Origin: a virus
Taxonomy: Duplodnaviria > Caudoviricetes
IMG/VR virus record: IMGVR_UViG_3300020046_003652
Location: 1 to 64,000 of that record
DNA: 64,000 bases
Direction: 5' to 3' (one strand)
Shown: positions 1,690 through 2,485 of the stretch, one piece after another
How positions within the stretch are numbered: the first letter of the stretch is position 1
Layout of the letters: each line of letters begins with the position of its first letter
The notes under the pieces: model-generated
Databases searched by the model: none
Told to the model about the DNA's origin: nothing
What the model saw: only the letters and a program-made list of their open reading frames with translations
Position numbers and translations under genes: made by a program

Positions 1690-2485
1690 ATGGTAATATC
1701 AGTATATCTAGGAATAATGTATTTTAACTATGGATTGAGAATTGGAATATTAGGACAGTTTCAGCAAGTGGAAGATGATATAATTCAAACGAATGAAGTG
1801 GTATTATGATTTTAAGTATATTCGATAATATGTATTTATATTATAATTATACATATAGTATATATCAATCAGGATTTGCCCGTTCTCTTTTAGGAAAAAT
1901 AGATGACGAGGAAATAACATTATGACTATCTCTATTGTATATGATTGGATGTATTATAATTATGGTTGGTATATTGATTTAGATGGAGAAATATCATATG
2001 ATTCTAGTGGTAAAATAGATTTGGAGATAGACCTATGATTATACATTCTACTGTTTTTAGTCAAAAAGATACCTATCCTAATTTGTGGTATATACGTCAC
2101 AATCAAAGTATCACTATATATACTCAAGGTGGGATATATAATGGAGATTATTTTAATTATATAACATATAATAATGATTTTAGTATTGAAGCAAAGGTAT
2201 TATGATTCTATCTATTTATAATGACTTATTGTTTTATAATTATTATGTAACAATGAATGCTTCTGGTAGAGTTAATATTTTTTATGATGGTATAGGTTTT
2301 TTAGTAGACGAGGTTGTTTTATGATTTTGTATGTTTATCATTCTTCAGTATATCATGTAAATAGATTATTAATATCTACGGGTGAAATGGGATTTAGTAT
2401 TATTCCTAAAGGAACTTCTAGTGGAGAAGCAGCTGAACATTCCATGGACTTATATCAATCTAACTTCGAATTATCATTATTATAA
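1690..2485 (+). other. Tandem array of six coupled micro-ORFs: 1690-1809, 1806-1925, 1922-2038, 2035-2205, 2202-2324, 2321-2485
   Basis: Each is open for 38-56 codons and joined by (T/C)TATGA overlaps; four share M-x-[LI]-S-[IV]...[YF]NY...G...E-[VI]-x-L. Confidence 0.88.

Follow-up and report, generated by a model that had tools for sequence, protein, structure and literature searches.

Overlapping orphan microprotein genes with allelic C-terminal tails in a plastic arm of an uncultured tailed phage

We found that six small open reading frames (ORFs) at 1690–2485 form an overlapping tandem chain containing four members of a new orphan protein family, which lies in a known kind of phage genome region. 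On balance we favour the reading that they encode translationally coupled accessory microproteins in the plastic arm of a novel tailed phage, each with a common core and an exchangeable tail, and that they are probably early and host-directed; a host-directed or counter-defence function, judged on its own, is put forward tentatively. Phage annotation routinely overlooks genes of at most 50 codons, but such genes fill several kilobases of the present genome, and the family could be shown to be real and constrained from the sequence alone. The locus also provides a natural experiment, in that the differences among at least ten near-identical strains are concentrated in the final ~15 codons of the family members and in cassette copy number.

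The window analysed here (64,000 nucleotides) corresponds to the initial 64 kb of an IMG/VR record of 75,447 bp, which is linear and estimated to be 88% complete, and belongs to an uncultured, AT-rich phage of ~85 kb with a G+C content of ~30%. Genes for the large terminase (10616–12076), portal (12076–14130) and major head protein (20262–21518), together with tail genes, identified it as a tailed phage. No isolated phage has a terminase more than 28% identical to the present one, and megablast of positions 1–8000 against 50,697 phage records returned no match. On the minus strand lie genes for a family B DNA polymerase, DnaB helicase, ClpP and a MoxR-type AAA/VWA pair; the ClpP-like protease and the MoxR-type AAA ATPase with its DUF2201 metallopeptidase/VWA partner are encoded at 46295–47155 and 53292–56316. 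Outside the window, the phage also encodes an Erf annealing protein, an S8 subtilase-like protein, a PD-(D/E)XK nuclease and a class II ribonucleotide reductase; the first three of these were located at 2171–5329 of L024. Two GIY-YIG homing-endonuclease-like genes, one of which also carries NUMOD3, were seen at 9940–10623 and 21668–22525, one immediately upstream of the terminase and the other immediately after the major head gene. A tRNA scan and Rfam at the gathering threshold found nothing in the whole window, and the lone snoRNA match obtained with Rfam at E≤10 on 1500–2950 was judged to be due to chance. The array is part of a nearly continuous plus-strand chain of 38–70-aa ORFs and a dUTPase gene that extends from 245 to 6031.

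The initial annotation had described a six-gene tandem array at 1690–2485, and all six plus-strand ORFs are indeed present, each sharing ATGA with the next. In order, they are members A (1690–1809, 39 aa), B (1806–1925, 39 aa) and C (1922–2038, 38 aa, net charge ~−7) of the family described below, a 56-aa gene of a second paralogue family (2035–2205), member E (2202–2324, 40 aa) and a last gene of 54 aa (2321–2485). We placed the start of the first gene at the ATG at 1690 because an upstream ATG at 1684 is destroyed in strains L011–L013. Such overlaps are common in this genome: among open frames of 35 codons or more, 77 pairs meet at an ATGA junction. Leu is the last residue of the upstream product (TTATGA/CTATGA) in 47 of the 77, and the residue following the start Met is limited to I, K, T, N, S, R or M because an A comes after the ATG. 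Shine–Dalgarno-like tetramers occurred at −16 to −4 in 36% of the junctions compared to 7% of random positions. Within the array, GGAG, GAGG or AAGG was found at −16 to −4 of the next ATG at four of the five internal junctions, in agreement with the earlier proposal that E-[VI]-x-L codons supply a ribosome-binding-site-like patch. As read from the sequence, the acidic C-terminal codons double as putative Shine–Dalgarno-like patches, and the six ORFs would be translated as one coupled chain by way of the ATGA overlaps and the patches in the last codons of each preceding gene.

The flanks of the array carry candidate signals. Just upstream is a palindromic hairpin, AAAAGTCATCGTGACTTTT, followed by a T run (1649–1669, plus strand), which is kept in the distant relative L004; it was not called by a terminator scan and is possibly a weak terminator or an operator. 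It lies in the non-coding stretch 1545–1690, which also contains AGCGAGTCGAA...GTGACGCAGC and is partly conserved in L004 (74%). When the hairpin 18-mer was used as an anchor in IMG/VR, six unrelated contigs were returned, all of them chance palindrome matches. A promoter scan directly upstream of 1690 found none. At the 3′ boundary of the array, a sigma-70-like promoter (TTGACA, 17 nt, TG-n-AATACT; 2494–2522, plus strand) is kept in L004 and in all close strains. It is followed by ~350 nt without ORFs, and the region 2494–2890 is 82–85% identical in L004; in the near-identical strains L011, L013, L014 and L016, the ORF-free stretch after the −10 box is replaced by unrelated sequence. This stretch had no Rfam match, RNA folding of 2525–2860 was no better than that of shuffled sequences (MFE z −0.64), and a search for the core of the non-coding cassette revealed it only in L004.

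Four of the array genes (1690, 1806, 1922 and 2202) had been proposed to be paralogues. We examined this with a leave-one-out test, in which three of the four peptides were made into a hidden Markov model (HMM) and the fourth was scored with it, together with 500 composition-matched shuffles of each. The left-out peptides A, B, C and E scored 19.1, 9.9, 16.8 and 18.8 bits, respectively, and the best of the 500 shuffles reached 8.6–11.0 bits, so that the profile separated the peptides from shuffled sequence and the proposed family held up, with member B the weakest (9.9 bits compared to a shuffle maximum of 9.6). Because residues imposed by the junctions must not help, shuffles were also made with the first and last three residues fixed, and their best scores were 9.4–13.2 bits.

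Similar starts had also been noticed at 1287, 5043 and 22930–23070, and the first two of these proved to be family members, at 13 bits each, a score equalled by none or one of 500 shuffles. Gene 1287 (member Z; 1287–1406, plus strand, 39 aa), which lies outside the six-gene array and has a TTG start with GGAGG 7 nt upstream, was matched by none of its 500 shuffles and was linked to gene 2202 by blastp (E=1.7e-5). Gene 5043 (5043–5174, plus strand) encodes 43 aa in the window and 36 aa in L011, and is absent in strain G001/L003; in L003 genes 4781 and 5043 are both cleanly missing at junctions. A further gene, 4912 (4912–5046, plus strand, 44 aa), was newly assigned to the family. It scored 54 bits with the extended HMM compared to 10.5 for the best decoy, but because the training alignment includes gene 4912 itself, the independent evidence is its blastp link to gene 5043 (E=1.3e-6). 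The minus-strand candidate at 22930–23070 did not stand: its 46-aa ORF contains NLVIFNYG, reminiscent of the family motif, and its HMM score was never near the decoy ceiling. That ORF belongs to a small antisense cassette inside the structural module. Iterating the HMM within the genome gave nothing beyond the seven members, with 57494, 3045 and 22930 (minus strand) at decoy level.

The seven genes would make up a lineage-restricted family of 38–44-aa peptides that, as read from their sequences, are acidic and contain abundant Tyr, Phe and Trp. The motif that marks the family itself is S-[IV]-[YFV]-x-x-h-h-[YF]-[YF]-N-Y together with an invariant Gly at position 22, and the family alignment contains no conserved 7-mer. 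The conserved frame described in the initial annotation thus stood in part: the N-terminal block (residues 1–14) and G22 are kept between paralogues, but the two ends of the frame (M-I/T at the N-terminus and E-[VI]-x-L at the C-terminus) are no evidence of conservation at the protein level, because they largely follow the genome-wide grammar of translational coupling. In the N block of the paralogues (13 codons), synonymous sites are saturated (pS 0.68) compared to a pN of 0.39, with serine encoded by both TCN and AGY. Since synonymous sites are saturated while the amino acids are held, the duplications must be old, and codon comparison indicates that this block is under purifying selection. 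Every frame is open in all of the strains, at least ten in number, although these differ by many substitutions and by gene indels. Between strains, neighbouring genes gave a pS of 0.058 and a pN of 0.012, and gene 2321 is likewise kept (pS 0.147, pN 0.016). Collectively, these data make it very probable that this is a real coding family in a plastic accessory arm of the phage.

Searches outside the window showed the family to be an orphan restricted to one phage lineage. When 1.84 billion representative proteins were searched exhaustively with a profile, only members from this lineage and two low-complexity artefacts were returned. There was no match in Pfam or PHROGs, none of 20 members matched PADLOC at E≤1, the best PDB sequence-profile match had an E of 0.65, the ESM Atlas gave no usable match, and a family profile search of the relatives G001 and G002 found none. 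Exact-protein look-ups and anchor searches recovered arrays or fragments on eleven further contigs from at least ten independent samples (among them L011–L016, L023 and L025–L027); a metagenome search with the 234-aa neighbour gave one short contig. The phage is carried by samples SRR31843399, DRR826756, SRR14800548, SRR24750960, SRR13444058, SRR26871262, DRR438530, SRR30163053 and JGI 3300020049. Where covered, A, B, C and E stand in the same order in eight arrays from at least seven further samples, and their number and order are constant across strains. Some gene callers had skipped A and B in some contigs. An array is also present in the distant relative L004, whose terminase is 89% identical; the non-coding elements on either side are conserved, the DNA that they enclose bears no recognisable resemblance to that of the window, and the single family-like ORF (92–235 of L004) scored 11.9 bits, just above the best decoy.

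AlphaFold2 was run on members E and C with alignments of 16 and 20 sequences, respectively, and placed strands at the same positions (3–6, 9–12, 16–18 and 24–26/28), with a fifth strand, completing a five-strand beta meander, predicted only in E. The best models had mean pLDDT values of 78.9 (E) and 72.7 (C) and pTM values of 0.48 and 0.41. Confidence was moderate, as the other four models of each run had pLDDT values of 45–67, and it dropped in the last ten residues. These models predict that the members have a small all-beta core of four or five strands (approximately residues 1–27) and a flexible acidic tail. Searches of PDB and BFVD with Foldseek found nothing above noise (best E=0.41, a Staphylococcus phage protein in BFVD), nor did an exhaustive VIA-align search (best Z=4.2).

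The strains revealed where the peptides vary. The window and L011 share identical stretches hundreds of bases long, such as 1100–1355, and we compared the final 15 codons of Z, A, B, C and E between them within an aligned 1.4 kb. These tails carried 40 substitutions in 225 sites, compared to 6 in 358 for the heads and 19 in 836 for the rest (odds ratio 10, p=8e-18), and comparisons with L012 and L013 were similar. In the tails pS was 0.32 and pN 0.185 (omega ~0.5); in the heads the values were 0.046 and 0.011. Because dS is raised together with dN, the tails are older than their surroundings, which indicates that recombination has moved them as alleles and that they did not arise through recent positive selection on point mutations. 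There are few such alleles, and they are discrete: B ends in either GKIDDEEITL or GRIDNFEKVL, forms that have 13 differences in 25 nt and no intermediates among the strains, while A has three tail forms, E at least three and Z two main ones, and at least six alleles of C occur in public data. All four combinations of Z and B tails were found (in the window, L023, L011 and L025), showing that tail alleles reassort between strains. When more strains were included, C and Z also varied in their N halves, so that the contrast between heads and tails is strong, not absolute. A search for gene-conversion donors in the genome and the recovered loci found none.

These data bear on the earlier idea of a variable middle under diversifying selection on a binding surface. 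A variable middle is indeed seen between paralogues; among the orthologues of at least ten strains the hot spot is the C-terminal tail. Diversifying selection was not borne out: between paralogues the saturation of synonymous sites (pS 0.68) makes a selection test impossible, and with a tail omega of ~0.5 between strains positive selection is not demonstrated. We infer no more than that the variable residues might form a binding surface.

Variation was also found in the number of the longer genes. Both longer array ORFs (56 and 54 aa) have no detectable relation to the 39-aa family; the N-terminus of the 54-aa product resembles it weakly, with a blastp match to gene 1806 that is not significant (E=0.044). 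The 56-aa genes were treated as a separate family because hhalign of the 39-aa against the 56-aa family gave a probability of 2.5%, and this second family becomes visible in the sequences of relatives, with which the window copy aligns. Between C and E there is one 55–56-aa copy in the window, L015, L025 and L027, two in L011–L014 and L016, and three in L026, and the strain arrays hold six, seven or eight genes. The 14-nt junction sequence GTATTATGATTCTA occurs once in the window (2197–2210, plus strand) and flanks the extra 56-aa gene in L011–L014 as a direct repeat, which indicates that the copy number has changed by recombination at this repeat.

The mechanism that we favour is as follows. 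The microproteins would be made early, a timing assumed because of their position and the sigma-70-like promoter at 2494, and would bind host or defence components, with the common core acting as a scaffold and the tail setting specificity, so that several alleles could persist in the population. The last ~15 codons are discrete, deeply diverged alleles reassorted by recombination among near-identical strains, and neighbouring cassette genes are gained and lost through recombination at repeated junction sequences; the phage's own Erf annealing protein and PD-(D/E)XK nuclease could carry this out. A stronger form of the proposal is that co-translated microproteins with one beta core bear acidic tails that are ancient discrete alleles under balancing (frequency-dependent) selection, reshuffled by short-patch recombination to give combinatorial host- or defence-binding specificities without dedicated mutagenic machinery. 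Taken as a whole, this form is unlikely and is offered as speculation.

The main rival accepts that the genes are real and regards the hypervariable tails as a by-product of recombination centred on the junctions: the repeated junctions and the dual-coded Shine–Dalgarno/ATGA region would be preferred breakpoints for short-patch exchange with diverged relatives, and the tails would be weakly constrained linkers, not specificity determinants. Tail dS is raised as much as dN (omega 0.5), indels fall exactly at the junction repeats, the tail predictions are of low confidence, Shine–Dalgarno-like patches are present in every tail allele read, and Erf and the nuclease are encoded, all of which are as expected from neutral tails. 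However, the exchanged patches end before the N-terminal codons of the next gene, which remain identical; the non-family neighbours (the 56-aa gene, the 54-aa gene and gene 1403) have the same kind of junction without 3′ clustering of substitutions; and the alleles are discrete, with no intermediates. We consider this rival rather unlikely, though it deserves weight. If the tails are specificity determinants, the locus shows phages varying host-interaction proteins by sub-genic allele exchange; if they are not, translational-coupling junctions act as recombination sites and can mimic protein motifs, and this mimicry is a caution for microprotein discovery.

Three other accounts were weighed. 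Tandem small genes whose products share a conserved N half and the invariant G22 and vary in the C part recall precursor peptides of the RiPP type, in which the N block would be the leader and the tail the core, released by a phage protease cutting after the Gly; an S8 subtilase-like protein and ClpP are both encoded. This is very improbable, given that no modifying enzyme family was found among ~40 scanned ORFs of at least 100 aa, that the neighbours of the array are tiny ORFs and a dUTPase while the lone S8 protease lies ~65 kb away along the contig, that the tails are acidic, poor in Cys, Ser and Thr and also constrained by the ribosome-binding site of the next gene, and that the N block is predicted to be a folded beta sheet and not a helical leader. 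An even less favourable view must be taken of the suggestion that the ORFs are not genes at all and resemble one another through a diverged tandem DNA repeat or AT-rich composition, with accidental frames. The 30% G+C of the genome, the shortness of the ORFs and the skipping of A and B by gene callers would fit it; it is extremely improbable because composition-matched shuffles fall short of the real HMM scores, amino acids are held between paralogues although synonymous sites are saturated, the frames stay open in at least ten strains despite substitutions and indels, and the genes are spaced at exactly −4 nt with Shine–Dalgarno-like patches. Finally, hypervariability limited to the C-terminal ends of several target genes could point to a dedicated mutagenic system of the diversity-generating-retroelement type, yet no reverse transcriptase (PF00078) was found in the 75.4-kb record, which at 88% completeness makes the absence not absolute, while control genomes were matched; blastn-short of every tail allele against the genome and the recovered loci gave only chance matches of up to 16 nt elsewhere in the genome and no template copy; and the alleles are few and discrete, without a cloud of variants. 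Such a system is barely conceivable here.

Coupled accessory microproteins with exchangeable tails, the reading preferred here, have counterparts in the layout of known phage regions. The host-takeover or terminal-repeat modules of SPO1-like phages and Kayvirus and anti-defence islands (for example anti-CRISPR) consist of very small, packed and fast-evolving genes, sit at one genome arm, vary between strains and are thought to act on host proteins. The array is like them in its small-gene layout, without similarity in sequence or fold; its peptides (38–44 aa) are shorter than their typical members, and no associated regulator gene was recognised.

The hyperplastic regions of T4-type phages carry small non-essential ORFan genes that are shuffled between close relatives, the units being intergenic promoter/stem-loop cassettes (Arbiol et al. 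2010, PMC2839356). The present locus, in a phage unrelated to T4 as its terminase comparison indicates, likewise has blocks of small genes without homologues outside the lineage, shows insertion, deletion and replacement between phages otherwise ~95–100% identical, and recombines at short repeated boundary sequences. Unlike the T4-type cassettes, its genes overlap by 4 nt without intergenic space, the repeated unit is a coding junction (the 14-nt repeat), the hairpin and promoter are found only at the flanks of the array, and sub-genic patches are exchanged as well. Small-gene families have also been predicted in microbiome and phage metagenomes (for example bioRxiv 10.1101/494179). The present family resembles them in being a conserved set of proteins of at most 50 aa that is known only from metagenomic assemblies and backed by conservation, not by experiments; its paralogues in tandem and its allelic tails set it apart, since neither is general in such catalogues. 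No catalogued family was matched with the tools used.

Other small genes of the arm show comparable patterns. Genes 3865 and 3996 (3865–4139) are a paralogue pair (blastp E=2.9e-6) with an identical 13-nt sequence, CAAAGGTTATAGT, before the junction, and genes 3513 (3513–3695) and 4136 (4136–4324) form another (E=0.001). The window genes 3230 and 3364 (3230–3516) correspond to four successive genes in L011, all with starts of the MKLF, MTLY, MKLY or MILY type. Furthermore, the dUTPase gene (4338–4781 in the window, 4823–5269 in L011) has been swapped for a clearly different allele, with N-termini of MDIKIKKLVDTA... in the window and MITLKVKKLHPD... in L011, while the neighbouring tiny genes are still orthologous.
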